Source of the DNA: Cylindrospermopsis raciborskii Cr2010
GTDB lineage: Bacteria > Cyanobacteriota > Cyanobacteriia > Cyanobacteriales > Nostocaceae
Direction: 5' to 3'
Length of the DNA: 32,000 nucleotides
Assembly: GCF_003367075.2 (NCBI RefSeq)
Contig: NZ_CP065936.1
Coordinates: 3,660,001-3,692,000 of the forward strand
Under the pieces are notes generated by a model, which saw only the letters and a program-made list of their open reading frames with translations, was not told the DNA's origin and searched no databases. A program made the translations under genes and the position numbers. How positions within the stretch are numbered: the first letter of the stretch is position 1; the number at the start of each line of letters is the position of its first letter. Positions 4,948-26,649 of this stretch are shown piece after piece.

Positions 4948-4968
4948 ACTAATGGATATGTGCTTATT

Positions 4969-4997
4969 ATCTTAATCCCAGTTTATCTCTAATTCAA
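4969..4997 (-). promoter_or_regulatory. candidate sigma70-type promoter of copy 1 (TTGAAT-N17-TAAGAT)
   Basis: Minus strand: TTGAAT (4997-4992), 17-nt spacer, TAAGAT (4974-4969), 21 nt upstream of the ATG. Conserved upstream of copies 2 and 3. Confidence 0.35.
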
Positions 4998-5038
4998 TCA
5001 CCGGGTTTATTTATGTGAATTTATTTTAAATTAAAAGG

Positions 5039-5105
5039 GCGATTGCAAAGGATTACCCGTGATTTGGTTGAATTAACCCAAACCTAGAGACTGTCCGTGG
5101 GGGAG
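5039..5105. repeat. half unit (67 bp) of a 134-bp hairpin-rich intergenic element
   Basis: gcgattgcaaaggattacccgtgatttggttgaattaacccaaacctagagactgtccgtgggggag. The same sequence ends the 201-bp versions at 6800-7000 and 8695-8895. Confidence 0.8.
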
Positions 5106-5165
5106 ACAGGGAATAAACTCCCTTAACCGACTGGCTTTATCGCGGGTGATTACATTTATCTTAAT

Positions 5166-6728
5166 TTATTTCCAATCCGCTTGAATGAGGTTACGTTTGC
5201 TGCGACTAAAAACCAGTCCCACTTCATGGACTGTTTTTCCTGGTTCTCCTCTATACTTTTGTGCATAGTTACATTCCCGTATCTGTTTTAAGGCTCGGTT
5301 CTCTTTCACATTCTCCCCATCTACTACCTTGATTTCCATCACGTAAATATGATCACCCAGGATGGCAGTTATGTCCGCTTGACCATAGTTGGTGATATCT
5401 TCCGGGATAATGCGCGCATTTAAGGAACTCAAAAAAGCATATAGTACAGAAGCGTAGTAACCTTCAAAATCAGCTAGGTCATTGTTGGTAAAGTTACGCC
5501 AAGGAATACCCGCAAATAGACGCTTTATCGCCTTCACTATTGATTCCAAATCCCCATTCCACATACACTCATAAAGGATATCTTGAATAGCGCTCTTTTC
5601 ATTCACCATTCCTGTGTATACGTTGATGAACTGGTCGTTTAATGTCAGGCGAACTTCCATGTTAGGTATTTTTAGGGCAAACATGGAACGTCGGTGACGG
5701 GTAAAGGTGCGCTCAATGGTCAAATACCCTGATTGGAACAGCAGGGTAACTGGATTGATTTGTTCTATCTCAAAGGACTTTAAAATCTCCTCAGTTACTT
5801 CTAGATGCTCCAAGTTGGGGAGGAAGTAGCGGTTAGTCTGAAACAGCCTAATTAAAAAGGTGGGGTTCCCCGTTTCAAACCAGTAGTTACCATACTCCAT
5901 TCCCTCACGGATAAAAAGTAAGATATCATAAGGGTTATATACTGACTCACCACGCCATGAGTATCCATTATACCAGAGACGCAGTTCATCCCAGTCCACC
6001 CCTTGCAAGTGCTGGGCGAAGGTTTGCTCCAAATCTTCCTGGGTATACCCACAAATAGTAGAAAAGTCCCTACTGATGGTAATGTCGGTGAGTTGATTTA
6101 ACCCACTGAAAAGGCTGACTTTAGAGAATTTGGTGACCCCAGTCATGAAGATGAACTGGATGTTGGCATCCTGTTGCTTGAGGACTGAGTATAGATTCTT
6201 GAGTCCTTCCCTCATTTCCGAAGCAATAGGTGGATTGTCTATATTGTCCAGGATGGGTTTGTCGTATTCATCCACCAGCACCACAGCACGTTGTCCATAT
6301 TTTGCCATGGCTTTACGAATCAAAGTTCCTAATTTTCCCGGTATATCAGTTGACTCATAGGATACACCCAGATGCTCTGCATTTTCGTGCAAGATATCCA
6401 GTATGCGCATATCCAGCTCTTGTCGGTTTTTTAATACCCCACCAGCAAAGTCTATTTTAATCACTGGGAATTTTCTACTCCAGTCCCACTGGTCATGGAT
6501 ATAAAGCCCCTCAAATAATTTCTGATTCCCCTCGAAAATCTCCTTGAGGGTATCTACAAACAGACTTTTGCCAAAACGCCTGGGACGAGACAAAAAGAAG
6601 CGTCCAGGAATGCGTATCAGACGGTGAGCTATTTCGGTTTTGTCCACATAGACGCAATTGTTTTCCCGCAGCACACTTAGGGTGTTGATTCCCAAGGGGA
6701 GATTTTTGGGGTTCATACTAATGCTCAT
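5166..6728 (-). CDS. AAA-ATPase-like/PD-(D/E)XK protein (array 1, copy 2; blocks N2 + a)
   Basis: 520-aa intact ORF with the same motifs as copy 1. From residue ~45 on, the only protein difference from copy 1 is the last residue (K vs E). Possible shorter start MNPKN at 6716. Confidence 0.85.
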   Translation of the reverse strand: MSISMNPKNLPLGINTLSVLRENNCVYVDKTEIAHRLIRIPGRFFLSRPRRFGKSLFVDTLKEIFEGNQKLFEGLYIHDQWDWSRKFPVIKIDFAGGVLKNRQELDMRILDILHENAEHLGVSYESTDIPGKLGTLIRKAMAKYGQRAVVLVDEYDKPILDNIDNPPIASEMREGLKNLYSVLKQQDANIQFIFMTGVTKFSKVSLFSGLNQLTDITISRDFSTICGYTQEDLEQTFAQHLQGVDWDELRLWYNGYSWRGESVYNPYDILLFIREGMEYGNYWFETGNPTFLIRLFQTNRYFLPNLEHLEVTEEILKSFEIEQINPVTLLFQSGYLTIERTFTRHRRSMFALKIPNMEVRLTLNDQFINVYTGMVNEKSAIQDILYECMWNGDLESIVKAIKRLFAGIPWRNFTNNDLADFEGYYASVLYAFLSSLNARIIPEDITNYGQADITAILGDHIYVMEIKVVDGENVKENRALKQIRECNYAQKYRGEPGKTVHEVGLVFSRSKRNLIQADWK

Positions 6729-6729
6729 T

Positions 6730-6758
6730 ATCTTAGCTCTAGTTTATCTCTAATTCAA
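6730..6758 (-). promoter_or_regulatory. candidate promoter of copy 2 (TTGAAT-N17-TAAGAT)
   Basis: Minus strand: TTGAAT 6758-6753, 17-nt spacer, TAAGAT 6735-6730. The -10 ends 1 nt before the first ATG (6728), so a transcript would probably start inside ATGAGCATTAGT and use the MNPKN ATG nearly leaderless. Confidence 0.3.
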
Positions 6759-6799
6759 TCACCAGGGTTATTTATATGAATTTATTTTAAATTAAAAGG

Positions 6800-7000
6800 G
6801 CGATTGGGAAGCACTACTTATGGGATTAACCATAATTGTTTGAATTAACCCATACCTAGAGACTGTCCGTGGGGGAGTTTCGTAGGTTGGGTTGAGGAAC
6901 GAAACCCAACAAACCCACGGGATACATATAAACGCGATTGCAAAGGATTACCCGTGATTTGGTTGAATTAACCCAAACCTGGAGACTGTCCGTGGGGGAG
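6800..7000. repeat. 1.5 units (134 + 67 bp) of the hairpin-rich intergenic element
   Basis: gcgattg recurs at 6800 and 6934. Contains cgtaggttgggttgaggaacgaaacccaac (GTTGGGTT/AACCCAAC hairpin) at 6881-6910. This extra 134-bp unit is the main source of the longer period of units 2 and 3. Confidence 0.85.
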
Positions 7001-7060
7001 ACAGGGAATAAACTCCCTTAACCGACTGGCTTTATCGCGGGTGATTACATTTATCTTAAT

Positions 7061-8623
7061 TTATTTCCAATCCGCTTGAATGAGGTTACGTTTGCTGCGA
7101 CTAAAAACCAGTCCCACTTCATGGACTGTTTTTCCTGGTTCTCCTCTATACTTTTGTGCATAGTTACATTCCCGTATCTGTTTTAAGGCTCGGTTCTCTT
7201 TCACATTCTCCCCATCTACTACCTTGATTTCCATCACGTAAATATGATCACCCAGGATGGCAGTTATGTCCGCTTGACCATAGTTGGTGATATCTTCCGG
7301 GATAATGCGCGCATTTAAGGAACTCAAAAAAGCATATAGTACAGAAGCGTAGTAACCTTCAAAATCAGCTAGGTCATTGTTGGTAAAGTTACGCCAAGGA
7401 ATACCCGCAAATAGACGCTTTATCGCCTTCACTATTGATTCCAAATCCCCATTCCACATACACTCATAAAGGATATCTTGAATAGCGCTCTTTTCATTCA
7501 CCATTCCTGTGTATACGTTGATGAACTGGTCGTTTAATGTCAGGCGAACTTCCATGTTAGGTATTTTTAGGGCAAACATGGAACGTCGGTGACGGGTAAA
7601 GGTGCGCTCAATGGTCAAATACCCTGATTGGAACAGCAGGGTAACTGGATTGATTTGTTCTATCTCAAAGGACTTTAAAATCTCCTCAGTTACTTCTAGA
7701 TGCTCCAGGTTGGGGAGGAAGTAGCAGTTAGTCTGAAACAGCTTAATTAAAAAGGTGGGGTTCCCCGTTTCAAACCAGTAGTTGCCATACTCCATTCCCT
7801 CACGGATAAAAAGTAAGATATCATAAGGGTTATATACTGACTCACCACGCCATGAGTACCCATTATACCAGAGACGCAGTTCATCCCAGTCTACCCCTTG
7901 CAAGTGCTGGGCGAAGGTTTGCTCCAAATCTTCCTGGGTATACCCACAAATAGTAGAAAAGTCCCTACTGATGGTAATGTCGGTGAGTTGATTTAACCCA
8001 CTGAAAAGGCTGACTTTAGAGAATTTGGTGACCCCAGTCATGAAGATGAACTGGATGTTGGCATCCTGTTCCTTGAGGACTGAGTATAAATTCTTGAGCC
8101 CCTCTCTCATTTCCGAAGCAATAGGTGGATTGTCTATATTGTCCAGGATGGGTTTGTCGTATTCATCCACCAGCACCACGGTTCGTTCTCCAAATCGTTG
8201 GCATGCACCCGCAATGATTTCTCCGAAACGACCTTGAATATCCTCTAGTTCATAGTCCACTCCCAGGGATTGGGCAGTTTTTAAAAAAATACCATTAATT
8301 TTTTGGTCCAGCTCTTGTCGGTTTTTTAATACCCCACCAGCAAAGTCTATTTTAATCACTGGGAATTTTCTACTCCAGTCCCATTGGTCATGGATATAAA
8401 GCCCCTCAAATAATTTCTGATTCCCCTCGAAAATCTCCTTGAGGGTATCTACAAACAGACTTTTGCCAAAACGCCTGGGACGAGACAAAAAGAAGCGTCC
8501 AGGAATGCGTATCAGACGGTGAGCTATTTCGGTTTTGTCCACATAGACGCAATTGTTTTCCCGCAGCACACTTAGGGTGTTGATTCCCAAGGGGAGATTT
8601 TTGGGGTTCATACTAATGCTCAT
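7061..8623 (-). CDS. AAA-ATPase-like/PD-(D/E)XK protein (array 1, copy 3; blocks N2 + b)
   Basis: 520-aa intact ORF. Divergent central block QKINGIFLKTAQSLGVDYELEDIQGRFGEIIAGACQRFGERTVV between Walker A and Walker B. Rest near-identical to copies 1 and 2. Confidence 0.85.
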   Translation of the reverse strand: MSISMNPKNLPLGINTLSVLRENNCVYVDKTEIAHRLIRIPGRFFLSRPRRFGKSLFVDTLKEIFEGNQKLFEGLYIHDQWDWSRKFPVIKIDFAGGVLKNRQELDQKINGIFLKTAQSLGVDYELEDIQGRFGEIIAGACQRFGERTVVLVDEYDKPILDNIDNPPIASEMREGLKNLYSVLKEQDANIQFIFMTGVTKFSKVSLFSGLNQLTDITISRDFSTICGYTQEDLEQTFAQHLQGVDWDELRLWYNGYSWRGESVYNPYDILLFIREGMEYGNYWFETGNPTFLIKLFQTNCYFLPNLEHLEVTEEILKSFEIEQINPVTLLFQSGYLTIERTFTRHRRSMFALKIPNMEVRLTLNDQFINVYTGMVNEKSAIQDILYECMWNGDLESIVKAIKRLFAGIPWRNFTNNDLADFEGYYASVLYAFLSSLNARIIPEDITNYGQADITAILGDHIYVMEIKVVDGENVKENRALKQIRECNYAQKYRGEPGKTVHEVGLVFSRSKRNLIQADWK

Positions 8624-8624
8624 T

Positions 8625-8653
8625 ATCTTAGCTCTAGTTTATCTCTAATTCAA
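8625..8653 (-). promoter_or_regulatory. candidate promoter of copy 3 (TTGAAT-N17-TAAGAT)
   Basis: Minus strand: TTGAAT 8653-8648, 17-nt spacer, TAAGAT 8630-8625. Same geometry as copy 2. Confidence 0.3.
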
Positions 8654-8694
8654 TCACCAGGGTTATTTATATGAATTTATTTTAAATTAAAAGG

Positions 8695-8895
8695 GCGATT
8701 GGGAAGCACTACTTATGGGATTAACTATAATTGTTTGAATTAACCCATACCTAGAGACTGTCCGTGGGGGAGTTTCGTAGGTTGGGTTGAGGAACGAAAC
8801 CCAACAAACCCACGGGATACATATAAACGCGATTGCAAAGGATTACCCGTGATTTGGTTGAATTAATCCAAACCTGGAGACTGTCCGTGGGGGAG
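8695..8895. repeat. 1.5 units of the hairpin-rich intergenic element
   Basis: Near-identical to 6800-7000, with a few substitutions (e.g. aaccataatt -> aactataatt, gagacaggg -> gagataggg). Confidence 0.85.
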
Positions 8896-8955
8896 ATAGG
8901 GAATAAACTCCCTTAACCGACTGGCTTTATCGCGGGTGATTACATTTATCTTAAT

Positions 8956-9953
8956 TTATTTCCAATCCGCTTGAATGAGGTTACGTTTGCTGCGACTAAA
9001 AACCAGTCCCACTTCATGGACTGTTTTCCCCGGTTCTCCTCTATACTTTTGTGCATAGTTACATTCCCGTATCTGTTTTAAGGCTCGGTTCTCTTTCACA
9101 TTCTCCCCATCTACTACCTTGATTTCCATCACGTAAATATGATCACCCAGGATGGCAGTTATGTCCGCTTGACCATAGTTGGTGATATCTTCCGGGATAA
9201 TGCGCGCATTTAAGGAACTCAAAAAAGCATATAGTACAGAAGCGTAGTAACCTTCAAAATCAGCTAGGTCATTGTTGGTAAAGTTACGCCAAGGAATACC
9301 CGCAAATAGACGCTTTATCGCCTTCACTATTGATTCCAAATCCCCATTCCACATACACTCATAAAGGATATCTTGAATAGCGCTCTTTTCATTCACCATT
9401 CCTGTGTATACGTTGATGAACTGGTCGTTTAATGTCAGGCGAACTTCCATGTTAGGTATTTTTAGGGCAAACATGGAACGTCGGTGACGGGTAAAGGTGC
9501 GCTCAATGGTCAAATACCCTGATTGGAACAGCAGGGTAACTGGCATGCACCCGCAATGATTTCTCCGAAACGACCTTGAATATCCTCTAGTTCATAGTCC
9601 ACTCCCAGGGATTGGGCAGTTTTTAAAAAAATACCATTAATTTTTTGGTCCAGCTCTTGTCGGTTTTTTAATACCCCACCAGCAAAGTCTATTTTAATCA
9701 CTGGGAATTTTCTACTCCAGTCCCATTGGTCATGGATATAAAGCCCCTCAAATAATTTCTGATTCCCCTCGAAAATCTCCTTGAGGGTATCTACAAACAG
9801 ACTTTTGCCAAAACGCCCGGGACGAGACAAAAAGAAAGCTCCAGGCTGTTTTATCAACTGGAAGGCAAGCTGTGTTTTGTCCACATAAACGCAGTTGCTC
9901 CCGCGTAGTTTATCTAGGGTGTTGATCCCCAGGGGAAGATTTTTGGGGTTCAT
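8956..9953 (-). pseudogene. AAA-ATPase-like/PD-(D/E)XK gene, copy 4 (blocks N1 + b), inactivated by a 553-bp internal deletion
   Basis: Split into ORFs 9510-9953 (N-terminal 139 aa then out of frame) and 8956-9546 (C-terminal ~195 aa). The junction ggtaacTGGcatgcaccc at 9541-9543 joins the equivalents of 7648 and 8202 of copy 3. 553 is not a multiple of 3. Walker B and the central domain are lost. It also has RPRRFGKS -> RPGRFGKS. Confidence 0.85.
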
Positions 9954-10085: not shown

Positions 10086-10373
10086 ATGCAAGAAAAAGGT
10101 GTAAAATGGGTCAAAACCCTTGCACCAAACTATATTGAGATATATCGCAAACAAAAGCAACAAGACACAACACCGGAAGACTTTGAACTATCCCTTGAGG
10201 GAAAAATAGCACCGGATAACCGCTGGGTCATCTTGGCTAAAATAATACCATGGTCACAATTTGAAGCGGAATATGCAGCAATATTTTCAGAAGGAAAAGG
10301 CGCACCAGCAGACATCAGTTATCCTAATAAATTATGTAAAGAATTTCCGCTCCTTTTTATCCTGGGAGGTTAA
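10086..10373 (+). mobile_element. truncated IS5/IS1182-like transposase gene (N-terminal InsH/DUF772-type fragment only)
   Basis: The translation ...KIAPDNRWVILAKIIPWSQFEAEYAAIFSEGKGAPA matches the N-terminal region of IS5-superfamily transposases as I remember them. Similarity stops after GAPA (~10310) and no DDE domain follows. A possible terminal sequence ggggttgctaaataaatc lies at ~10019. Confidence 0.5.
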
Positions 10374-10551
10374 GAATGGCTCGCGCTAAATCCCTAGCTT
10401 CCGACCAGCTTTCATTTAACGCTTCCTGCAAACGAGATGTTAGAGCGGTATTTTGCCTCAAAAGTTTAGCAATAGCTGTGCGTTGAACACGAATAGTTGC
10501 TCGCCAACTATTTGTCTGCTTCCAATAGGGAATTTTTATTAATTTTATCAT
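10357..10551 (-). CDS. hypothetical short ORF / gene fragment downstream of array-2 copy A
   Basis: 64-aa ORF starting 44 nt after the stop of copy A. No family recognised. Its first ~20 nt are duplicated downstream of copy C (14018-14037), where the reading frame immediately diverges. It may be a remnant. Confidence 0.25.
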   Translation of the reverse strand: MIKLIKIPYWKQTNSWRATIRVQRTAIAKLLRQNTALTSRLQEALNESWSEARDLARAILNLPG

Positions 10552-10595
10552 ACCATTTATTTATTCCTGCTAAAAACAGTCAATTTTACAAACAC

Positions 10596-12155
10596 TCAAG
10601 CCCTAATCACAGTAATTCTATATTGATTTTCTGTCACCACCATCTCAGTTGATAATCTTTCTTCCATTGGTAAGGCATTTTTCCGCCTATCAAAGATAAA
10701 TAACCAACCAAAATCTAAACCCAAACGCCCTAAATACGATTCTAATTGTTCAATTCCATCACCTTGAGGATCGCGTTTTTTATCCCGCCACACTTTTAAT
10801 TCAATCCCTAAAATAACATCTTTATACTGCAAACATAAATCCATTCTATCACTACCAATGGCATATTCCCTTTCTAAAACCCCTCCACCATTAACTACAC
10901 GATGTAAAAAAGCCATTAATACAATATGGGGTGCAATTTCATGATATCCTGTGCTACCTAATAATGGTTCTCCATGTTGTCGCCAAAACTTGAGAAATGC
11001 AGTTAATAAAGCATCAATATTTAATTCACCTGCTGATGTTAACCAAGTTGGTGCAATCATCGGTAAAGAAGCCATTGGTGTGACTGTTAAAACTCTGGGT
11101 AACACTTCCCGATAAATGGGATTAGCAATAGTTAATCCTCCATAGGGGTGCATTTTACATAATCCTAAATCTATCACAAATTGAATATCATCATTAGGTA
11201 TATCCCCTAATTCTAAACCTGCTAACATTGGTTCAATAATTGCCTTTATTCTTGGTTCTCTTAACCTTTCTGCTAAACTATCTAAATGAGTATCTTGACG
11301 AATTATTAATATTTCCTTAGCTGTTAAAATATGTTCTTTGGTAATAGCAATACTTCTATCTTTTACCATTTTTTCTACAATTTCCTTAGCTAAAGCATTC
11401 ACTAACCAAGGTTGTCCTTGGGTTAAATCATAGGCTGTTTCTATAGCTTCAGGTGTGAAAATTTGCCCAGTTGCTGCTGTATGTTGTTGATATAATTCTC
11501 CTACTTCTGCAAGATTAAAATTTCTCATAGTCAAAGAAGCAACTTTTATATTAAAAGGACTAGAAGTATTTAATCTGTCACTACCTCCCGATGCTACTTT
11601 ATAATCTCGCACATCTCGTAAACCAATTAATCCTACTGATGAAGGAAAATTTTCCGGACGTTTAGGAAAACCATCTCTTAATTGTCGTAAAACTGAAATT
11701 AATGTTTGGTCTTGTAAAGAATCAATTTCATCTATAAATAATACTATGGGACGATTTATAGCTTTTGCCCAACCTCTTAAAAAAGCTTTAATTCTGCTTC
11801 CTGCTTCTTCCTGTTGCCATTGTTTAGCAGGAGGGTGTAATTCTTGTGGTAAACTATCTTGGATTGTATTATACCATGCCCCTAAAATTGCTAATTCTGC
11901 GGTGGTAGGATCATGATTAAATGCACTGCCTACTTCTACGGATACCATGACTGCGGCATAATTTCCGCTGTCCGTAAGTTGCTGTGCCAGGGATAACATG
12001 GCGGTGGTTTTCCCTGTTTGTCGTGGTGCGTGTAGGACAAAATAACTTTCTTGTTCAATTAACGTTGATAAGTCGGGTAAACGACTGGTGGTTGAGATGG
12101 TATAGTTTTTTTTAGGGTTACAAGGACCTGCAATATTAAACCAGCGATTGATCAT
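10596..12155 (-). CDS. P-loop NTPase (ORC/Cdc6-like AAA) with C-terminal PD-(D/E)XK-like motif (array 2, copy A)
   Basis: 519-aa intact ORF. Walker A HAPRQTGKTT, Walker B IVLFIDEID, C-terminal DRMDLCLQYKDVILGIELKVW (D..E.K). Block haplotype 1-a-1-L (see findings). Confidence 0.85.
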   Translation of the reverse strand: MINRWFNIAGPCNPKKNYTISTTSRLPDLSTLIEQESYFVLHAPRQTGKTTAMLSLAQQLTDSGNYAAVMVSVEVGSAFNHDPTTAELAILGAWYNTIQDSLPQELHPPAKQWQQEEAGSRIKAFLRGWAKAINRPIVLFIDEIDSLQDQTLISVLRQLRDGFPKRPENFPSSVGLIGLRDVRDYKVASGGSDRLNTSSPFNIKVASLTMRNFNLAEVGELYQQHTAATGQIFTPEAIETAYDLTQGQPWLVNALAKEIVEKMVKDRSIAITKEHILTAKEILIIRQDTHLDSLAERLREPRIKAIIEPMLAGLELGDIPNDDIQFVIDLGLCKMHPYGGLTIANPIYREVLPRVLTVTPMASLPMIAPTWLTSAGELNIDALLTAFLKFWRQHGEPLLGSTGYHEIAPHIVLMAFLHRVVNGGGVLEREYAIGSDRMDLCLQYKDVILGIELKVWRDKKRDPQGDGIEQLESYLGRLGLDFGWLFIFDRRKNALPMEERLSTEMVVTENQYRITVIRA

Positions 12156-12225
12156 GATTTTGGTAATAGGTGAACTCTTTAAGTTTAGATCATTTTTGGG
12201 TTAAGGTGTTGGAATAGATCAACAT

Positions 12226-13782
12226 TTATGCCCTAATCACAGTAATTCTATATTGATTTTCTGTCACCACCACATCAGTTGATAACCTTTCTTCCATTGG
12301 TGAGGCATTTTTCCGCCTATCAAAGATAAATAACCAACCAAAATCTAAACCCAAACGCCCCAAATACGATTCTAATTGTTCAATTCCATCACCTTGAGGA
12401 TCGCGCTTTTTATCCCGCCATACTTTTAATTCAATCCCTAAAATAACATCTTTATACTGCAAACATAAATCCATTCTATCACTACCAATGGCATATTCCC
12501 TTTCTAAAATTCCTCCACCATTAACCACACGATGTAAAAAAGCCATTAATACTATATGTGGTGCAATTTCATGATAAGCAGCACTACTTAATAATGGTTC
12601 TCCATGTTGTCGCCAAAATTTGAGAAATGCAGTTAATAAACTATCTATATTTAATTCACCATTTGCAGTCAACCAACTAGGACTAATTAAGGGTAAACTA
12701 TCCTGAGTTCCTTGGACTAAAACACGGGGAATTACTTCCCTATATATGGGGTTAGAAATAACTAATCCCCCCATTGGATCACGTCTTAATAATCCTAAAT
12801 CTATTAAATATTGGCGATCGTCTGCTAAAGTATCAGGTAATGTTTGTCCTGCTAAAATGGGTTCAATAATATTTTTAACTCGGTTTTCTCTAAGTCTTTC
12901 GGCTAAACTATCTAAATGAGTATCTTGACGAGTAATCAATGTTTCCTTAGCTGTTAAAATATGTTCTTTGGTAATAGCAATACTTCTATCTTTTACCATT
13001 TTTTCTACAATTTCCTTAGCTAAAGCATTCACTAACCAAGGTTGTCCTTGGGTTAAATCATAGGCTGTTTCTATAGCTTCAGGTGTGAAAATTTGCCCAG
13101 TTGCTGCTGTATGTTGTTGATATAATTCTCCTACTTCTGCAAGATTAAAATTTCTCATAGTCAAAGAAGCAACTTTTATATTAAAAGGACTAGAAGTATT
13201 TAATCTGTCACTACCTCCCGATGCTACTTTATAATCTCGCACATCTCGTAAACCAATTAATCCTACTGATGAGGGAAAATTTTCTGGACGGTTAGGAAAA
13301 CCATCTCTTAATTGTCGTAAAACTGAAATTAATGTTTGGTCTTGTAAAGAATCAATTTCATCTATAAATAATACTATGGGACGATTTATAGCTTTTGCCC
13401 AAGCTGATAAAAAAGCCTTAATTCTGCTTCCTGGTTCTTCCTGTTGCCATTGTTTAATAGGTGGTTGTAATTCTTTGGGTAAGCGGATATTTATTGTATT
13501 ATACCATGCCCCTAAAATTGCTAATTCTGCGGTGGTAGGATCATGATTAAATGCACTGCCTACTTCTACGGATACCATGACTGCGGCATAATTTCCGGTA
13601 TTAGTAAGTTGCTGTGCCAGGGATAACATGGCGGTGGTTTTCCCTGTTTGTCGTGGTGCGTGAAGAACAAAATAACTACGTTGTTGAATTAACGCCTCTA
13701 AATCTGGTAATCTAACTGTGGGAGATAAGAGATAGTGGATATCGTTTGAACATGGACCTGCAATATTAAACCAGCGAGTCAT
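12226..13782 (-). CDS. P-loop NTPase/PD-(D/E)XK-like protein (array 2, copy B)
   Basis: ORF 12226-13821. I place the start at MTRWFNIAG (ATG 13782), homologous to the MINRWFNIAG start of copies A, C and D. 518 aa. Haplotype 2-b-2-S. Confidence 0.85.
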   Translation of the reverse strand: MTRWFNIAGPCSNDIHYLLSPTVRLPDLEALIQQRSYFVLHAPRQTGKTTAMLSLAQQLTNTGNYAAVMVSVEVGSAFNHDPTTAELAILGAWYNTINIRLPKELQPPIKQWQQEEPGSRIKAFLSAWAKAINRPIVLFIDEIDSLQDQTLISVLRQLRDGFPNRPENFPSSVGLIGLRDVRDYKVASGGSDRLNTSSPFNIKVASLTMRNFNLAEVGELYQQHTAATGQIFTPEAIETAYDLTQGQPWLVNALAKEIVEKMVKDRSIAITKEHILTAKETLITRQDTHLDSLAERLRENRVKNIIEPILAGQTLPDTLADDRQYLIDLGLLRRDPMGGLVISNPIYREVIPRVLVQGTQDSLPLISPSWLTANGELNIDSLLTAFLKFWRQHGEPLLSSAAYHEIAPHIVLMAFLHRVVNGGGILEREYAIGSDRMDLCLQYKDVILGIELKVWRDKKRDPQGDGIEQLESYLGRLGLDFGWLFIFDRRKNASPMEERLSTDVVVTENQYRITVIRA

Positions 13783-13909
13783 AGAATTTTGGTAATAGGT
13801 GAACTCTTTAAGTTTACACATTTATTTGAGAAAATTATGATCTGGCATTATAAAAAGGTTCACTAGTAAGGAGACAGTGTATTTGTCACTGAAACACCAA
13901 CAGGTATTA

Positions 13910-14002
13910 TTATAACTGCTGGTAATCCTGATTTTGAAAAAGCAATGGAGGCTTACCACCACGTTTATTGGGTTCAATTGTGATATAATCTCTGTAATTC
14001 AT
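13910..14002 (-). pseudogene. possible DUF433-like gene fragment in the insertion between copies B and C
   Basis: 30-codon ORF MNYRDYITIEPNKRGGKPPLLFQNQDYQQL. The first 18 aa resemble the (W/R)DYIxxDPxxxxGKP N-terminal motif of DUF433 proteins from memory. The expected CI.GTRI continuation is absent in this frame. Confidence 0.25.
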
Positions 14003-14076
14003 GATGTGATGAGGGCATTTTTATTAATTTTATCATACCATTTATTCCTGCTAAAAACAGTGAATTTTGCAAACAC

Positions 14077-15636
14077 TCAAGCCCTAATCACAGTAATTCT
14101 ATATTGATTTTCCGTCACCACCACCTCAGTTGATAACCTTTCTTCCATTGGTAAGGCATTTTTCCGCCTATCAAAGATAAATAACCAACCAAAATCTAAA
14201 CTCAAACGCCCTAAATACGATTCTAGTTGTTCAATTCCATCACCTTGAGGATCGCGTTTTTTATCCCGCCACACTTTTAATTCAATCCCTAAAATAACAT
14301 CTTTATACTGCAAACATAAATCCATTCTATCACTACCAATGGCATATTCCCTTTCTAAAACCCCTCCACCATTAACTACACGATGTAAAAAAGCCATTAA
14401 TACAATATGGGGTGCAATTTCATGATATCCTGTGCTACCTAATAATGGTTCTCCATGTTGTCGCCAAAACTTGAGAAATGCAGTTAATAAAGCATCAATA
14501 TTTAATTCACCTGCTGATGTTAACCAAGTTGGTGCAATCATCGGTAAAGAAGCCATTGGTGTGACTGTTAAAACTCTGGGTAACACTTCCCGATAAATGG
14601 GATTAGCAATAGTTAATCCTCCATAGGGGTGCATTTTACATAATCCTAAATCTATCACAAATTGAATATCATCATTAGGTATATCCCCTAATTCTAAACC
14701 TGCTAACATTGGTTCAATAATTGCCTTTATTCTTGGTTCTCTTAACCTTTCTGCTAAACTATCTAAATGAGTATCTTGACGAATTATTAATATTTCCTTA
14801 GCTGTTAAAATATGTTCTTTGGTAATAGCAATACTTCTATCTTTTACCATTTTTTCTACAATTTCCTTAGCTAAAGCATTCACTAACCAAGGTTGTCCTT
14901 GGGTTAAATCATAGGCTGTTTCTATAGCTTCAGGTGTGAAAATTTGCCCAGTTGCTGCTGTATGTTGTTGATATAATTCTCCTACTTCTGCAAGATTAAA
15001 ATTTCTCATAGTCAAAGAAGCAACTTTTATATTAAAAGGACTAGAAGTATTTAATCTGTCACTACCTCCCGATGCTACTTTATAATCTCGCACATCTCGT
15101 AAACCAATTAATCCTACTGATGAGGGAAAATTTTCTGGACGGTTAGGAAAACCATCTCTTAATTGTCGTAAAACTGAAATTAATGTTTGGTCTTGTAAAG
15201 AATCAATTTCATCTATAAATAATACTATGGGACGATTTATAGCTTTTGCCCAAGCTGATAAAAAAGCCTTAATTCTGCTTCCTGGTTCTTCCTGTTGCCA
15301 TTGTTTAATAGGTGGTTGTAATTCTTTGGGTAAGCGGATATTTATTGTATTATACCATGCCCCTAAAATTGCTAATTCTGCGGTGGTAGGATCATGATTA
15401 AATGCACTGCCTACTTCTACGGATACCATGACTGCGGCATAATTTCCGGTATCAGTAAGTTGCTGTGCCAGGGATAACATAGCGGTGGTTTTCCCTGTTT
15501 GTCGTGGTGCGTGTAGGACAAAATAACTTTCTTGTTCAATTAACGTTGATAAGTCGGGTAAACGACTGGTGGTTGAGATGGTATAGTTTTTTTTAGGGTT
15601 ACAAGGACCTGCAATATTAAACCAGCGATTGATCAT
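14077..15636 (-). CDS. P-loop NTPase/PD-(D/E)XK-like protein (array 2, copy C)
   Basis: 519-aa intact ORF. Haplotype 1-b-1-L. Private substitution GRLGLDFG -> GRLSLDFG. Confidence 0.85.
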   Translation of the reverse strand: MINRWFNIAGPCNPKKNYTISTTSRLPDLSTLIEQESYFVLHAPRQTGKTTAMLSLAQQLTDTGNYAAVMVSVEVGSAFNHDPTTAELAILGAWYNTINIRLPKELQPPIKQWQQEEPGSRIKAFLSAWAKAINRPIVLFIDEIDSLQDQTLISVLRQLRDGFPNRPENFPSSVGLIGLRDVRDYKVASGGSDRLNTSSPFNIKVASLTMRNFNLAEVGELYQQHTAATGQIFTPEAIETAYDLTQGQPWLVNALAKEIVEKMVKDRSIAITKEHILTAKEILIIRQDTHLDSLAERLREPRIKAIIEPMLAGLELGDIPNDDIQFVIDLGLCKMHPYGGLTIANPIYREVLPRVLTVTPMASLPMIAPTWLTSAGELNIDALLTAFLKFWRQHGEPLLGSTGYHEIAPHIVLMAFLHRVVNGGGVLEREYAIGSDRMDLCLQYKDVILGIELKVWRDKKRDPQGDGIEQLESYLGRLSLDFGWLFIFDRRKNALPMEERLSTEVVVTENQYRITVIRA

Positions 15637-15706
15637 GATTTTGGTAATAGGTGAACTCTTTAAGTTTAGATCATTTTTGGGTTAAGGTGTTGGAATAGAT
15701 CAACAT

Positions 15707-17266
15707 TTATGCCCTAATCACAGTAATTCTATATTGATTTTCTGTCACCACCACATCAGTTGATAACCTTTCTTCCATTGGTGAGGCATTTTTCCGCCTA
15801 TCAAAGATAAATAACCAACCAAAATCTAAACCCAAACGCCCTAAATACGATTCTAATTGTTCAATTCCATCACCTTGAGGATCGCGTTTTTTATCCCGCC
15901 ACACTTTTAATTCAATCCCTAAAATAACATCTTTATACTGCAAACATAAATCCATTCTATCACTACCAATGGCATATTCCCTTTCTAAAATTCCTCCACC
16001 ATTAACCACACGATGTAAAAAAGCCATTAATACTATATGTGGTGCAATTTCATGATAAGCAGCACTACTTAATAATGGTTCTCCATGTTGTCGCCAAAAT
16101 TTGAGAAATGCAGTTAATAAACTATCTATATTTAATTCACCATTTGCAGTCAACCAACTAGGACTAATTAAGGGTAAACTATCCTGAGTTCCTTGGACTA
16201 AAACACGGGGAATTACTTCCCTATATATGGGGTTAGAAATAACTAATCCCCCCATTGGATCACGTCTTAATAATCCTAAATCTATTAAATATTGGCGATC
16301 GTCTGCTAAAGTATCAGGTAATGTTTGTCCTGCTAAAATGGGTTCAATAATATTTTTAACTCGGTTTTCTCTAAGTCTTTCGGCTAAACTATCTAAATGA
16401 GTATCTTGACGAGTAATCAATGTTTCCTTAGCTGTTAAAATATGTTCTTTGGTAATAGCAATACTTCTATCTTTTACCATTTTTTCTACAATTTCCTTAG
16501 CTAAAGCATTCACTAACCAAGGTTGTCCTTGGGTTAAATCATAGGCTGTTTCTATAGCTTCAGGTGTGAAAATTTGCCCAGTTGCTGCTGTATGTTGTTG
16601 ATATAATTCTCCTACTTCTGCAAGATTAAAATTTCTCATAGTCAAAGAAGCAACTTTTATATTAAAAGGACTAGAAGTATTTAATCTGTCACTACCTCCC
16701 GATGCTACTTTATAATCTCGCACATCTCGTAAACCAATTAATCCTACTGATGAGGGAAAATTTTCTGGACGGTTAGGAAAACCATCTCTTAATTGTCGTA
16801 AAACTGAAATTAATGTTTGGTCTTGTAAAGAATCAATTTCATCTATAAATAATACTATGGGACGATTTATAGCTTTTGCCCAAGCTGATAAAAAAGCCTT
16901 AATTCTGCTTCCTGGTTCTTCCTGTTGCCATTGTTTAATAGGTGGTTGTAATTCTTTGGGTAAGCGGATATTTATTGTATTATACCATGCCCCTAAAATT
17001 GCTAATTCTGCGGTGGTAGGATCATGATTAAATGCACTGCCTACTTCTACGGATACCATGACTGCGGCATAATTTCCGGTATTAGTAAGTTGCTGTGCCA
17101 GGGATAACATAGCGGTGGTTTTCCCTGTTTGTCGTGGTGCGTGTAGGACAAAATAACTTTCTTGTTCAATTAACGTTGATAAGTCGGGTAAACGACTGGT
17201 GGTTGAGATGGTATAGTTTTTTTTAGGGTTACAAGGACCTGCAATATTAAACCAGCGATTGATCAT
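15707..17266 (-). CDS. P-loop NTPase/PD-(D/E)XK-like protein (array 2, copy D)
   Basis: 519-aa intact ORF. Haplotype 1-b-2-S, i.e. the N-terminus of A/C joined to the C-terminal half of B. Confidence 0.85.
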   Translation of the reverse strand: MINRWFNIAGPCNPKKNYTISTTSRLPDLSTLIEQESYFVLHAPRQTGKTTAMLSLAQQLTNTGNYAAVMVSVEVGSAFNHDPTTAELAILGAWYNTINIRLPKELQPPIKQWQQEEPGSRIKAFLSAWAKAINRPIVLFIDEIDSLQDQTLISVLRQLRDGFPNRPENFPSSVGLIGLRDVRDYKVASGGSDRLNTSSPFNIKVASLTMRNFNLAEVGELYQQHTAATGQIFTPEAIETAYDLTQGQPWLVNALAKEIVEKMVKDRSIAITKEHILTAKETLITRQDTHLDSLAERLRENRVKNIIEPILAGQTLPDTLADDRQYLIDLGLLRRDPMGGLVISNPIYREVIPRVLVQGTQDSLPLISPSWLTANGELNIDSLLTAFLKFWRQHGEPLLSSAAYHEIAPHIVLMAFLHRVVNGGGILEREYAIGSDRMDLCLQYKDVILGIELKVWRDKKRDPQGDGIEQLESYLGRLGLDFGWLFIFDRRKNASPMEERLSTDVVVTENQYRITVIRA

Positions 17267-17336
17267 GATTTTGGTAATAGGTGAACTCTTTAAGTTTAGA
17301 TCATTTTTGGGTTAAGGTGTTGGAATAGATCAACAT

Positions 17337-18893
17337 TTATGCCCTAATCACAGTAATTCTATATTGATTTTCTGTCACCACCACATCAGTTGATAACCTT
17401 TCTTCCATTGGTGAGGCATTTTTCCGCCTATCAAAGATAAATAACCAACCAAAATCTAAACCCAAACGCCCTAAATACGATTCTAATTGTTCAATTCCAT
17501 CACCTTGAGGATCGCGTTTTTTATCCCGCCACACTTTTAATTCAATCCCTAAAATAACATCTTTATACTGCAAACATAAATCCATTCTATCACTACCAAT
17601 GGCATATTCCCTTTCTAAAACCCCTCCACCATTAACTACACGATGTAAAAAAGCCATTAATACAATATGGGGTGCAATTTCATGATATCCTGTGCTACCT
17701 AATAATGGTTCTCCATGTTGTCGCCAAAACTTGAGAAATGCAGTTAATAAAGCATCAATATTTAATTCACCTGCTGATGTTAACCAAGTTGGTGCAATCA
17801 TCGGTAAAGAAGCCATTGGTGTGACTGTTAAAACTCTGGGTAACACTTCCCGATAAATGGGATTAGCAATAGTTAATCCTCCATAGGGGTGCATTTTACA
17901 TAATCCTAAATCTATCACAAATTGAATATCATCATTAGGTATATCCCCTAATTCTAAACCTGCTAACATTGGTTCAATAATTGCCTTTATTCTTGGTTCT
18001 CTTAACCTTTCTGCTAAACTATCTAAATGAGTATCTTGACGAATTATTAATATTTCCTTAGCTGTTAAAATATGTTCTTTGGTAATAGCAATACTTCTAT
18101 CTTTTACCATTTTTTCTACAATTTCCTTAGCTAAAGCATTCACTAACCAAGGTTGTCCTTGGGTTAAATCATAGGCTGTTTCTATAGCTTCAGGTGTGAA
18201 AATTTGCCCAGTTGCTGCTGTATGTTGTTGATATAATTCTCCTACTTCTGCAAGATTAAAATTTCTCATAGTCAAAGAAGCAACTTTTATATTAAAAGGA
18301 CTAGAAGTATTTAATCTGTCACTACCTCCCGATGCTACTTTATAATCTCGCACATCTCGTAAACCAATTAATCCTACTGATGAGGGAAAATTTTCTGGAC
18401 GGTTAGGAAAACCATCTCTTAATTGTCGTAAAACTGAAATTAATGTTTGGTCTTGTAAAGAATCAATTTCATCTATAAATAATACTATGGGACGATTTAT
18501 AGCTTTTGCCCAAGCTGATAAAAAAGCCTTAATTCTGCTTCCTGGTTCTTCCTGTTGCCATTGTTTAATAGGTGGTTGTAATTCTTTGGGTAAGCGGATA
18601 TTTATTGTATTATACCATGCCCCTAAAATTGCTAATTCTGCGGTGGTAGGATCATGATTAAATGCACTGCCTACTTCTACGGATACCATGACTGCGGCAT
18701 AATTTCCGGTATCAGTAAGTTGCTGTGCCAGGGATAACATGGCGGTGGTTTTCCCTGTTTGTCGTGGTGCGTGTAGGACAAAATAACTACGTTGTTGAAT
18801 TAACGCCTCTAAGTCTGGTAATCTGACTGTGGGAGATAGGACATAGTGGATATCGTTTGAACATGGACCTGCAATATTAAACCAGCGAGTCAT
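17337..18893 (-). CDS. P-loop NTPase/PD-(D/E)XK-like protein (array 2, copy E)
   Basis: ORF 17337-18959. Start placed at MTRWFNIAG (ATG 18893). 518 aa. Haplotype 2-b-1-S. Confidence 0.85.
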   Translation of the reverse strand: MTRWFNIAGPCSNDIHYVLSPTVRLPDLEALIQQRSYFVLHAPRQTGKTTAMLSLAQQLTDTGNYAAVMVSVEVGSAFNHDPTTAELAILGAWYNTINIRLPKELQPPIKQWQQEEPGSRIKAFLSAWAKAINRPIVLFIDEIDSLQDQTLISVLRQLRDGFPNRPENFPSSVGLIGLRDVRDYKVASGGSDRLNTSSPFNIKVASLTMRNFNLAEVGELYQQHTAATGQIFTPEAIETAYDLTQGQPWLVNALAKEIVEKMVKDRSIAITKEHILTAKEILIIRQDTHLDSLAERLREPRIKAIIEPMLAGLELGDIPNDDIQFVIDLGLCKMHPYGGLTIANPIYREVLPRVLTVTPMASLPMIAPTWLTSAGELNIDALLTAFLKFWRQHGEPLLGSTGYHEIAPHIVLMAFLHRVVNGGGVLEREYAIGSDRMDLCLQYKDVILGIELKVWRDKKRDPQGDGIEQLESYLGRLGLDFGWLFIFDRRKNASPMEERLSTDVVVTENQYRITVIRA

Positions 18894-19238: not shown

Positions 19239-19583
19239 CTATCTAAAAGAGATATTTATCAAAAAATTATCAATAAAATCAGTAATTTCCTGATAAAAAA
19301 CCCGCCCTTTTTCCCTACTACTACTCGCAGTTACTAGTAACCTTAAACTTTCCACCAATGAACTGATAGTAGCATCACAAACCAAATCAAATAACTGATT
19401 TAAATCATCTTGGTTTCGTTGTCCATAGGACAAAGCATGAATATAATCATTACGAATTTGATTATTAATCACGGTTAGTTCTGTAGTGAGATCCCATAGT
19501 AAGTGCTTTGCGATCTCCTGTAAGGAGTGCTTCACAATCGCATTTATATATGTCCCGTTGGTTTGTTGGGTTTCGTGCCTCAA
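19239..19583 (-). CDS. hypothetical protein (predicted all-helical; weak R-x4-H motif)
   Basis: 114-aa ORF. The only ATG (19583) and the first ~19 codons lie inside the first unit of the 154-bp repeat array, so the true N-terminus is uncertain (a GTG at ~19530 is possible). IRNDYIHALSY is faintly HEPN-like (Rx4H), which is not enough to assign a family. Confidence 0.4.
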   Translation of the reverse strand: MRHETQQTNGTYINAIVKHSLQEIAKHLLWDLTTELTVINNQIRNDYIHALSYGQRNQDDLNQLFDLVCDATISSLVESLRLLVTASSSREKGRVFYQEITDFIDNFLINISFR

Positions 19584-20415
19584 CCCAACCTACGATTACC
19601 CACGGTAAAACTAGTCGGTTTACGGGTAATTCCCTTTAAGTATTTAACAATAAGGGGTAATTGGCGAGCTCCCACAGGTATTGCTTCGCAATCGCATTTA
19701 TATATGTCCCGTTGGTTTGTTGGGTTTCGTGCCTCAACCCAACCTACGATTACCCACGGTAAAACTAGTCGGTTTACGGGTAATTCCCTTTAAGTATTTA
19801 ACAATAAGGGGTAATTGGCGAGCTCCCACAGGTATTGCTTCGCAATCGCATTTATATATGTCCCGTTGGTTTGTTGGGTTTCGTGTCTCAACCCAACCTA
19901 CGATTACCCACGGTAAAACTAGTCGGTTTACGGGTAATTCCCTTTAAGTATTTAACAATAAGGGGTAATTGGCGAGCTCCCACAGGTATTGCTTCGCAAT
20001 CGCATTTATATATGTCCCGTTGGTTTGTTGGGTTTCGTGCCTCAACCCAACCTACGATTACCCACGGTAAAACTAGTCGGTTTACGGGTAATTCCCTTTA
20101 AGTATTTAACAATAAGGGGTAATTGGCGAGCTCCCACAGGTATTGCTTCGCAACCGCATTTATATATATCCCGTTGGTTTGTTGGGTTTCGTGCCTCAAC
20201 CCAACCTACGATTACCCACGGTAAAACTAGTCGGTTTACGGGTAATTCCCTTTAAGTATTTAACAATAAGGGGTAATTGGCGAGCTCCCACAGGTATTGC
20301 TTCGCAACCGCATTTATATATATCCCGTTGGTTTGTTGGGTTTCGTGTCTCAACCCAACCTACGATTACCCACGGTAAAACTAGTCGGTTTACGGGTAAT
20401 TCCCTTTAAATATTT
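19527..20415. repeat. tandem array, ~5.8 units of a 154-bp hairpin-rich element
   Basis: Exact 154-bp periodicity (the same motif restarts at 19527, 19681, 19835, 19989, 20143 and 20297). Units differ at only 2-3 positions. Each unit contains the inverted repeats ATTGCttcGCAAT, GTTGGGTTtcgtgcctcAACCCAAC, TTACCCacgGTAAAactagtcggTTTACGGGTAA and CCCTTtaagtatttaacaatAAGGG. Confidence 0.95.
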
Positions 20416-25144: not shown

Positions 25145-25239
25145 AACTACTTTTCCCCGTATATCCGTTGACTATGAAAAAAATACTAACATGACTCAAA
25201 TTACTCGTCAAACATACCCGACTAAAAGAGTCGGATATG

Positions 25240-25500
25240 CTAACCACCACTGACTGGGGGGATGAGCACGACTTCATCTCCATGGTTGAGGATGGTGTCC
25301 GGATCTACAAACATTAGGTTAATGCCAAATCTGGTAAGATCACGCCATTGACTCAGTTGGGGATGTTCCCAGATCATGCGATCGCAAATAGATTTAACGG
25401 GTGTATGTGGAGGAAATTCCCACTCCAGTTCTGTCACTCCGTAGGCTTCTTGGTAGGCGGCAAATAGCTTAATTTTGACCAGAACTAAATTTGAGGACAT
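25240..25500 (-). CDS. moaD: molybdopterin synthase sulfur carrier subunit MoaD
   Basis: 86 aa. KLFAAYQEAYG...GDEVVLIPPVSGG, typical MoaD length and C-terminal GG. Confidence 0.8.
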   Translation of the reverse strand: MSSNLVLVKIKLFAAYQEAYGVTELEWEFPPHTPVKSICDRMIWEHPQLSQWRDLTRFGINLMFVDPDTILNHGDEVVLIPPVSGG

Positions 25501-25518
25501 AGGTATATAAATATATAT

Positions 25519-26397: not shown

Positions 26398-26477
26398 GTT
26401 TTGTGTTCCTTTGCTAAATTCTAAGGCGTAGTTAATGTTTGTTGACTGTTGATTTTTAGATATCAAACTCCAAGAAA

Positions 26478-26573
26478 TTAGCCTCCAGCTGCAAAAGTTG
26501 CCATAATTACAACTGAAAGCAAAAGTCCGGGGGTAAGTAGGGTGACTAAAACAATCAAATCATGGGTACTCAT
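26478..26573 (-). CDS. candidate 31-aa hydrophobic peptide (unannotated by the ORF track)
   Basis: ATG 26573, TAA 26478. MSTHDLIVLVTLLTPGLLLSVVIMATFAAGG is a single TM-like helix. Two TATAAT boxes lie on the same strand at 26610-26605 and 26599-26594. No family recognised. Confidence 0.25.
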   Translation of the reverse strand: MSTHDLIVLVTLLTPGLLLSVVIMATFAAGG

Positions 26574-26649
26574 AGTTATTTACCAAGGTTTAGATTATAG
26601 GTAGATTATAGCTACAGCAATTAACACTGCTATGTTAACCATTAACCTG

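Follow-up and report, generated by a model that had tools for sequence, protein, structure and literature searches.

A tandem array of mosaic ATPase-nuclease-like paralogues in Cylindrospermopsis raciborskii and the distribution of its block types among cyanobacteria

Concerted evolution by gene conversion and unequal crossing-over has been described in tandem or duplicated gene families as different as the ribosomal RNA (rRNA) operons, the duplicated tuf genes and the NLR gene clusters of plants, and in the HsdS subunits of type I restriction systems divergent target-recognition modules are shuffled within conserved sequence that serves as the substrate of recombination. Here we describe an array of five tandem paralogues, Array 2, in a stretch of 32,000 nucleotides (nt) of the cyanobacterium Cylindrospermopsis raciborskii Cr2010 (assembly GCF_003367075.2, contig NZ_CP065936.1, positions 3,660,001 to 3,692,000; hereafter the window), whose products are predicted AAA+ ATPases with a probable nuclease domain at the C-terminus and whose sequences are assembled from a small number of alternative blocks. 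Mosaic tandem paralogues shaped by conversion and crossing-over are already known, as are fusions of an ATPase to a PD-(D/E)xK domain; what is new is the family itself, the quality of the example and a dimorphism of the winged helix that is shared across genera.

The resemblance to HsdS and other cassette systems lies in the exchange of whole modules between tandem or nearby copies, by which old types are recombined anew. Unlike those systems, Array 2 has neither a site-specific recombinase nor inverted copies, its copies are not silent cassettes but whole genes that are presumably expressed, its arrangement is stable among strains, and a role of its modules in specificity is only presumed. 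With the concerted tandem families it shares homogenised segments that are closer within a genome than between taxa, hybrids at the junctions, copy-number polymorphism and the retention of islands of divergence; it differs in encoding a prokaryotic, uncharacterised ATPase-nuclease and in that the preserved islands are dimorphic modules found across genera, not variants specific to a lineage. At the level of the fold, the archaeal Orc1/Cdc6 proteins, RuvB and PABY2304 (2qby, 1in4 and 2qen) share with the Array 2 protein the succession of AAA+ core, lid and winged helix. Orc1/Cdc6 contacts DNA both through its winged helix and through a helical insert of the ATPase domain, and the two largest internal variable blocks of Array 2 would fall at the positions corresponding to these parts. 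The Array 2 protein is nevertheless unlike all three in its C-terminal nuclease-like domain, with an identity to them of only 14-18% and template modelling (TM) scores of 0.26-0.52, and unlike Orc1/Cdc6 and RuvB it has no link to replication or branch migration. A further comparison is offered by the DUF1703 family (PF09820 and PF08011), represented in the window by the adjoining Array 1, which is likewise uncharacterised and likewise consists of stand-alone proteins of ~520 amino acids (aa), with a P-loop ATPase at the N-terminus and, as is probable for Array 2, a PD-(D/E)xK-type domain at the C-terminus. In a profile alignment the D and ExK motifs of both families come into register, if at low probability, and both arrays show a block mosaic and copy-number variation; the ATPase part of DUF1703, in contrast, has no detectable similarity to that of Array 2 beyond the P-loop, and the Array 2 protein matches AAA_35 rather than PF09820 or PF08011 and has a predicted winged helix between ATPase and nuclease. 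In the Cardinium genome cCpun there are 25 DUF1703 paralogues, the variation of which was attributed to mutation and recombination (PMC6387759).

The five genes of Array 2 lie, like all the features of the array given below, on the minus strand, and are named here E, D, C, B and A from first to last. Copy E occupies 17337-18893, D 15707-17266, C 14077-15636, B 12226-13782 and A 10596-12155, the lower coordinate in each case belonging to the stop codon and the higher to the ATG start. Copies A, C and D begin with MINRW and have 519 aa, copies B and E have 518 aa counted from MTRW, and the ORF (open reading frame) of copy E, taken mechanically, extends to a GTG at 18959. A preliminary description of this DNA had reported five intact tandem paralogues with these stops, and the ORF listing agrees that all five frames are open; on the opposite strand the array contains no ORF of 100 aa or more. 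Three of the four intergenic intervals are 70-nt spacers of identical sequence, located between E and D (17267-17336), D and C (15637-15706) and B and A (12156-12225). The repeat unit of 1630 bp given in the same description is not uniform, however, since the interval between C and B is a junction of 294 nt instead of 70 nt (13783-14076) and the B-to-C unit accordingly measures 1851 bp. The flank that follows A (10527-10595; GTGTTTG.AAAATT.ACTGTTTTTAGCAGGAATAAAT...) has its homologue in the ~65 nt of this junction directly past the stop of C (14012-14076), and the rest, 13783-14011, holds a remnant of a DUF433-type gene, MNYRDYITIEPNKRGGKP, made up of the first 18 codons of an antitoxin-like gene; the upstream region of B and a hairpin resembling a terminator (13962-13942) are also part of it.

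The genes carry one of two types of N-terminal head (1 or 2) and one of two types of tail (L or S). Each type-1 head (A, C and D) is preceded by the identical 70-nt spacer, and the type-2 heads (B and E) by long upstream regions that have only their last ~45 nt in common; each L tail (A and C) is followed by the shared flank of ~65 nt, and the S tails (B, D and E) by the spacer. Because head and tail types track position in this way, the array is composed of two sub-arrays, E-D-C and B-A, of which E and B are the first and C and A the last members, and the flank after A marks the end of one of them. The D-C pair is 97.3-97.5% identical to the B-A pair over 3.3 kb. Copy D, which joins head 1 to the second type of the large internal block (block IV, below) and to tail S, shows the pattern expected of an unequal-crossover hybrid. 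This dependence of head and tail on array position had gone unnoticed in the preliminary description, as had the ancient, cross-genus character of the block alleles. A promoter scan returned fewer sigma-70-like sites (12) than were found in shuffled sequence (38.5), so any operon structure is judged only from the spacing and the one terminator-like hairpin. Downstream of A there is a DUF29 fragment (10357-10551), which is called as a 64-aa ORF in strain KLL07.

Alignment of the five genes with MAFFT gave 1560 nt columns, of which 191 are variable, clustered in discrete blocks within which the copies are partitioned consistently. In the head, block I (nt 1-108), B and E differ from A, C and D; across nt 183-513 A alone deviates; across nt 845-1276, B and D differ from A, C and E at 112 sites (~26% divergence); and across nt 1484-1559, A and C differ from B, D and E. 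Type 1 of block I is found at 12048-12155 (A), 15529-15636 (C) and 17159-17266 (D), and type 2 at 13678-13782 (B) and 18789-18893 (E). Block III of copy A (nt 294-513; 11643-11862) is the sole example of its allele, a, in the array. Block IV, taken as codons 282-426, is of type 1 at 10878-11312 (A), 14359-14793 (C) and 17619-18053 (E) and of type 2 at 12508-12942 (B) and 15989-16423 (D), so that its types run 1-2-1-2-1 along the array. The copies may thus be written as A: head 1, block III a, block IV 1, tail L; B: head 2, block IV 2, tail S; C: head 1, block IV 1, tail L; D: head 1, block IV 2, tail S; and E: head 2, block IV 1, tail S. Block membership and haplotypes agree with those in the preliminary description, as do the invariant Walker A, Walker B and D...ELK motifs, identical in all five copies, and a long stretch of complete identity, estimated there by eye at ~0.33 kb (aa ~165-280) and measured here as 331 nt (nt 514-844, aa 172-281), the longest in the alignment. 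The blocks, into which 188 variable sites are concentrated, have a nucleotide divergence of 10-34%. Adjacent variable sites share the same partition in 163 cases, compared with 75 +/- 5 after permutation and never as many as 163 in 10,000 permutations, and the binned density of variable sites likewise lies above all 10,000 permutations. At the protein level A and B differ at 69 residues: the winged helix accounts for 23 of them, the head for 15, the linker for 11 and block III for 9, which leaves 11 for the remaining 344 residues. That there are five different combinations of blocks is correct, but as a count of events it overstates the case, because a four-gamete test on the five copies requires only one exchange (Rm, the minimum number of recombination events, = 1). 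The stronger evidence for mosaicism, in our judgement, is the juxtaposition of 0% and 26-34% divergence, together with the comparison of strains.

A protein identical to that of copy A is encoded by each of two complete chromosomes, CP195152.1 and that of C. raciborskii KLL07, CP091284.1 (PMC9303873). Both carry five copies at the same locus, and a five-copy array is also present in JBPFSD010000001, which brings the number of C. raciborskii genomes with five copies to four, the window included. In the window, copy A differs from its orthologues in these strains at 0-1 positions, B at 1-6, C at 4-9, D at 4-10 and E at 7-31. Between the window and KLL07 the alignment is gapless over 15,222 nt with 99.78% identity, and 25 of the 34 mismatches in these 15.2 kb fall in array genes. 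A fifth genome, VHLJ01000003, has three copies, the counterparts of E (7 differences), D (5) and A (3); in all five C. raciborskii genomes the array occupies one fixed chromosomal locus. Cylindrospermopsis curvispora GIHE-G1 (CP060822), assembled from PacBio (subread N50 12.5 kb) and Illumina reads (PMC7679094), has an independent five-copy array at a different locus (L077, 10001-18099), flanked by a gene for a Rieske protein and an HSP70-like gene and with spacers of 78-84 nt. Its block IV types run 1-2-1-2-2 with matching borders (nt 841-1260), two of its copies have a third allele of block III, IEDSLPAELQPQTWVYNVPGQRIAENLRAW, and all four gametes of block III and block IV occur. The ORFs are intact in 23 of 23 C. 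raciborskii and 5 of 5 C. curvispora copies (28 copies in six genomes). On these comparisons we regard the array as real and inherited.

The differences between orthologous copies of different strains take the form of short tracts that match another paralogue. If copies of the two comparison strains are denoted by the numbers 1 and 2 and the letter of the copy (1B, 1D, 2C, 2D), and copy D of the window by wD, then 2C has the state of A at nt 156-188; at the left margin of block IV, type 1 sequence covers nt 845-885 in 2D and nt 845-854 in 1B; and at nt 1365-1425 1D and 2D agree with B but wD agrees with A, C and E. The borders of the blocks therefore move by tens of bases between strains, which points to homologous rather than site-specific exchange. 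Copy E of CP195152 (L001, 3263-4819) and of JBPFSD01 (L076, 6744-8300) shows ~25 private differences confined to nt 153-711, a region in which copy E of the window and of KLL07 is identical to B-D; no donor for this patch was found among 94 genes of the family. The region has thus either been homogenised in the lineage of the window and KLL07 or been imported in the other.

Homogenised segments, incongruent segments (3700 incompatible pairs of sites), tracts matching a paralogue and copy-number polymorphism (three versus five) are all present, as in families undergoing concerted evolution, and the mosaic is the work of general homologous recombination, that is, of unequal crossing-over and gene conversion, without a dedicated diversifying machine. 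An inherited array, made mosaic by homologous recombination and retaining its divergent cassettes, is in our view the probable explanation of the whole. The comparisons lead back to at least two old and diverged module lineages as starting material; one supplied the "first gene" (head 2, tail S) and the other the "last gene" (head 1, tail L), and their winged-helix blocks differed too. Unequal crossing-over, to which the dependence of head and tail types on array position points, joined neighbouring genes into hybrids such as D (head 1, block IV 2, tail S) and also changes the copy number. In a simple history that fits these facts, the ancestral pair was then duplicated, with later conversion events such as that in block IV of E. 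Frequent conversion between adjacent copies keeps the conserved core identical, and three cassettes (N-terminal head, ATPase-domain insert, winged helix plus linker) stay divergent and move only as whole units because exchanges begin and finish in the identical flanking sequence. A single additional unequal crossover, whether of D with B or of C with A, would produce the polymorphism of three versus five copies.

The description of the product as an NTPase-nuclease holds firmly for its first half. Pfam AAA_35 (PF14516) is matched with 31.1 bits by copy A and 36.3 bits by copy B, above the curated cut-off of 27, and AAA (PF00004) with 29.3 and 30.4 bits, above 21.2; the APRQTGKTT and IVLFIDEID motifs of a P-loop AAA+ ATPase are invariant in the five copies. 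An AlphaFold2 model assigns residues 39-211 to an AAA+ core, 215-286 to a lid, 292-356 to a winged helix and 408-518 to a C-terminal alpha-beta-beta-beta-alpha-beta unit. The order of core, lid and winged helix is that of ORC/Cdc6 and RuvB at the level of the fold, and Foldseek matches the model to RuvB (E 4.8e-8), Orc1/Cdc6 (2qby_A, E 5.9e-7) and an archaeal Walker ATPase (2qen, TMq 0.39, TMt 0.52). The winged helix recurs in a separate model of the C-terminal part, with a local pLDDT (predicted local distance difference test) of 80-83. Extra helices (83-101, 112-115 and 121-132) between the strand at 67-74 and the Walker B strand at 137-145 invite comparison with the DNA-contacting helical insert that follows alpha-2 in the initiator clade (Orc1/Cdc6/DnaA), although matches to RuvB score as high as those to Orc1/Cdc6. 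The nuclease half of the description is more weakly supported, by a motif, predicted secondary structure and profile matches below threshold: the predicted elements are H408-422, E426-430, E437-444, E447-456, H463-478 and E482-489, with D439 and E452-L-K454, and the C-terminal domain is probably a PD-(D/E)xK nuclease. The helical insert that contains block III lies between strand beta-2 (67-74) and the Walker B strand, a position that would correspond by analogy to the DNA-contacting insert of Orc1/Cdc6; block IV covers both the predicted winged helix and the linker and includes the first helices of the nuclease domain. Other searches added little: no NCBIfam model matches the protein, a PDB sequence search returned nothing relevant with the single protein and P-loop matches only with the family profile, hhalign of a shallow alignment against the Array 1 protein found the P-loop only, a viral fold library gave generic clamp-loader or RFC ATPases only, and nothing relevant was found in the literature on AAA_35/PF14516 or on Cylindrospermopsis with tandem ATPases.

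The protein has at least 8000 close relatives, of which the best 120 are all cyanobacterial with 83-97% identity, and the family amounts to 773 representative clusters at E <= 1e-30. The 94 genes used for comparison come from 73 loci of other species and from the Cylindrospermopsis loci. Across them the variable regions (aa 11-40, 91-140 and 301-390) are those of the window's blocks, and the distances in block IV are bimodal (0-0.20 and 0.24-0.34), with two main classes of 72 sequences (type 1, the form of A, C and E) and 19 sequences (type 2, the form of B and D). The preliminary description had proposed looking in related genomes for the same block alleles in other arrangements, and these were found: both classes of block IV occur in Microcystis, Dolichospermum, Sphaerospermopsis and Cylindrospermopsis, combined with many types of head and block III, and the two stand together at 6 of 12 other multi-copy loci, single copies being the rule (~60 of 73 loci). 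It had also proposed a comparison of nonsynonymous (dN) and synonymous (dS) divergence inside and outside the blocks. Between types 1 and 2 of block IV, dS is 0.70 and dN 0.23 (dN/dS 0.33, in a range of 0.33-0.57 for comparisons between types), whereas within a type, between Cylindrospermopsis and Microcystis or Dolichospermum, dS is 0.34-0.40 with a dN/dS of 0.04-0.10; in the core (aa 136-281) dS is 0-0.02 within the array compared with 0.25-0.34 between genera. The cassettes thus predate the spread of the family among these genera, each of them conserved while the scaffold is homogenised locally. Between Microcystis, a member of the Chroococcales (L005, L007-L012, L022, L032, L035, L045 and L047), and Cylindrospermopsis, a member of the Nostocales, dS is only 0.25-0.40, similar to the value for Dolichospermum and below that for Calothrix (0.7-1.6), and this low divergence across orders suggests horizontal exchange of family genes among planktonic bloom-formers.

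Elsewhere the family is repeatedly associated with mobile elements. At 28 of the 73 loci a family gene lies inside the hupL interruption element of heterocystous Nostocales, where the order is hupS, a 5' hupL fragment (~175 codons), one to three family genes and an XisC-like recombinase; such loci are scattered among L003-L073 (for example L017, 8196-17583), the family gene is usually the first cargo gene, and L036 has three copies with a period of 2947 bp. Since the gene lies between the hupL fragment and the recombinase it would be excised from the heterocyst chromosome. A published survey of hupL and other interruption elements did not identify the family gene and mentions an unrelated, element-specific ATPase in nifD elements. 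Plasmid copies were found in eight records (H4-H11) from Pseudanabaena sp. ABRG5-3 and P. galeata CCNP1313, with 60-63% identity. Their neighbours are unrelated, CHAT/TPR genes in one and an integrase with transporters in another, and no consistent partner gene was found in the plasmid neighbourhoods, nor a conserved one among the chromosomal loci. Intact DUF433 and DUF5615 pairs flank family members at 18 and 12 other loci, respectively, and a divergent HSP70/MreB-like gene (~530-630 aa) stands beside family genes at eight Microcystis loci and the C. curvispora array (L005, L007-L009, L011, L012, L022, L045 and L077).

In the window, Array 2 has a GC content of 34-37% compared with 41-44% in the flanks, and the segment varies between strains. 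It adjoins Array 1 (3397-9953, minus strand), whose genes are of the DUF1703 type (AAA-ATPase_like and PDDEXK_9 domains), with three intact copies and one with an internal deletion of ~550 nt (8956-9953). Its block patterns conflict with one another, copies a1 and a4 differing from a2 and a3 at nt 1-120 (0110) and a1 and a2 from a3 and a4 at nt 301-480 (0011). Compared with these four copies, CP195152, JBPFSD01 and VHLJ01 have three intact ones, one of those in VHLJ01 being called shorter (502 aa), and KLL07 has two intact copies and the deleted one. The segment upstream of E also differs by strain, consisting of either a Uma2 gene and a 154-bp tandem repeat or of Fic and DUF29 genes. The repeat lies between copy E and the Uma2 gene (19528-20415; 5.8 copies with 99% identity), its unit has short internal palindromes, and KLL07 has it too, whereas in CP195152 its place is taken by Fic and DUF29; Rfam gave no family match in the window, the repeat included. 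All seven HIP1 octamers of the window (GCGATCGC) lie beyond 24.6 kb, at 24675-31766 (0.04 expected by chance), and none is found in the 21 kb that hold both arrays and their nearest neighbours.

What the retained cassettes are for can be approached through the analogy with Orc1/Cdc6. They may be specificity determinants, contacting DNA or a ligand, of an ORC/Cdc6-like module that directs the nuclease; each type would then be maintained by selection, and the array would be a small repertoire within a family linked to mobile elements and probably engaged in genetic conflict, whether defence or selfish maintenance. We put this forward tentatively, as one possibility. The fuller form of the idea, a single-gene, ORC-like ATPase-nuclease conflict system of cyanobacteria in which specificity is set by an exchangeable ATPase insert and winged helix, balancing selection has preserved at least two winged-helix specificities beyond the divergence of bloom-forming genera, and arrays act as recombination workshops without a dedicated recombinase, is speculative and, taken as a whole, rather unlikely.

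Several observations weigh against the explanation as a whole or against reading the cassettes as specificity determinants. The dN/dS between block types is below 1, with no direct signature of positive selection; a mismatch of ~26% could alone block the extension of heteroduplexes and so preserve the divergent blocks; and an identity of 83-97% across genera is unusually high for a defence gene. No homologues were found in phage genomes by tblastn, and a search of PADLOC-DB v2 returned no named defence system, its sole match being mad8 (E 3.6e-4) over 37 residues of the Walker B region (125-161). The full-length model is of moderate quality (pLDDT 68; predicted TM score, pTM, 0.43), for which reason the mapping of the blocks onto DNA-contacting elements is by analogy, and the separate model of the C-terminal part (aa 282-519) was as a whole unusable (pLDDT 48) and kept out of the fold search. 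The nuclease assignment is touched as well: hhalign against PDDEXK_9 of Array 1 aligns D and ExK in register with an E-value of 0.0029 and a probability of only 10.6%, the Pfam match to DpnII-MboI (E 0.12) is under the cut-off, and Cas4 (4ic1) is matched at E 0.2. Finally, the sequencing technology could be verified for only one of the four five-copy C. raciborskii assemblies.

Some of the same facts would be expected under neutral concerted evolution alone, in which the blocks are old divergence between paralogues that conversion cannot erase and their combinations are accidental. The between-type dN/dS (0.33-0.57) does not exceed 1, divergence of 26-34% is a barrier to heteroduplex formation, the four-gamete test strictly needs one exchange, head and tail types are fully accounted for by array position, and the co-occurrence of both block IV types at 6 of 12 loci is not clearly above the ~1/3 expected with independent draws (an estimate from the 72:19 ratio). 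Neutrality does not, however, explain why block IV falls into discrete classes with a gap in distance in Microcystis, Dolichospermum, Sphaerospermopsis and Cylindrospermopsis, and it is opposed by the strong purifying selection on each block type across genera (dN/dS 0.04-0.10), by the coincidence of the variable regions in 94 genes and by the intactness of 28 of 28 copies in six genomes. We consider this account unlikely, though one with real claims to attention.

AAA+ proteins act as oligomers, and the paralogues might instead be subunits of one AAA+ machine, as in Orc1/Cdc6 heterodimers or RFC, with the blocks as interfaces and the array as an operon. This oligomeric habit, the presence of an Orc1/Cdc6 heterodimer on DNA (2qby_A) among the best structural matches, the alternation of block IV types (1-2-1-2-1), the frequency of mixed types in multi-copy loci, and the 70-nt spacers and few promoter-like sites, which fit co-transcription, all speak for such a complex. 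The occurrence of a single copy at ~60 of 73 loci does not, nor does the variation between three and five copies among strains with reading frames kept, the stoichiometry of 3:2 in the window against 2:3 in C. curvispora, or the existence of several pairs with the same block IV type, and we think it improbable that the array encodes one.

A similarly small chance attaches to the proposal that the genes are self-propagating or addictive elements, homing-like or restriction-like, which multiply through their own activity and whose identity across genera reflects recent horizontal spread. The dS between Microcystis and Cylindrospermopsis (0.25-0.40) is no higher than that against Dolichospermum, several copies stand at scattered sites of Microcystis chromosomes, the family is found in the eight plasmid records of the two Pseudanabaena strains and as cargo of the hupL element, and its neighbours are variable and include toxin-antitoxin remnants. 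No terminal repeats, target duplications or transposase-like domain were found, however, the locus is fixed in five C. raciborskii genomes, and the duplication junctions are accounted for by homologous unequal crossing-over.

Programmed diversification, by a shufflon with its site-specific recombinase, a diversity-generating retroelement or phase variation, was rejected as very improbable, although the cassettes with their identical flanks do resemble hsdS or pilin cassette systems. All copies are direct; inverted matches are limited to 17-22 nt with 77-83% complementarity and are absent from the block borders; the genes called in the window and at the orthologous loci include neither a recombinase nor a reverse transcriptase; all twelve base changes are represented among the block IV substitutions, which are not confined to adenine; and the arrangement is the same in four strains with borders that shift by tens of bases. 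Least credible is an assembly artefact, in which repeats from two loci or two strains were made chimeric or mis-collapsed, which the preliminary description had itself named as a possible refutation, for although an array of 8.3 kb with runs of identity up to 331 nt is difficult for short reads, four independent C. raciborskii assemblies have five copies that are orthologous copy by copy, the related C. curvispora array comes from a PacBio and Illumina assembly (PMC7679094), and other genera have complete genes of both block alleles.

As an example of paralogue evolution the array is unusually clean, since hybrids linked to their junctions, homogenised cores, tracts that differ between strains and a polymorphism of three versus five copies can be read directly from the sequence, and its host is an ecologically important bloom-forming cyanobacterium, for one strain of which, KLL07, a phage, Cr-LKS3, is available. 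It also draws attention to a very large, highly conserved and uncharacterised family of ATPase-nucleases carried on hupL excision elements and plasmids. If the modules do set specificity, the family would represent a new kind of modular nuclease system, and if the arrays do serve as recombination workshops, they would be a prokaryotic parallel to NLR gene clusters or to the shuffling of HsdS domains.

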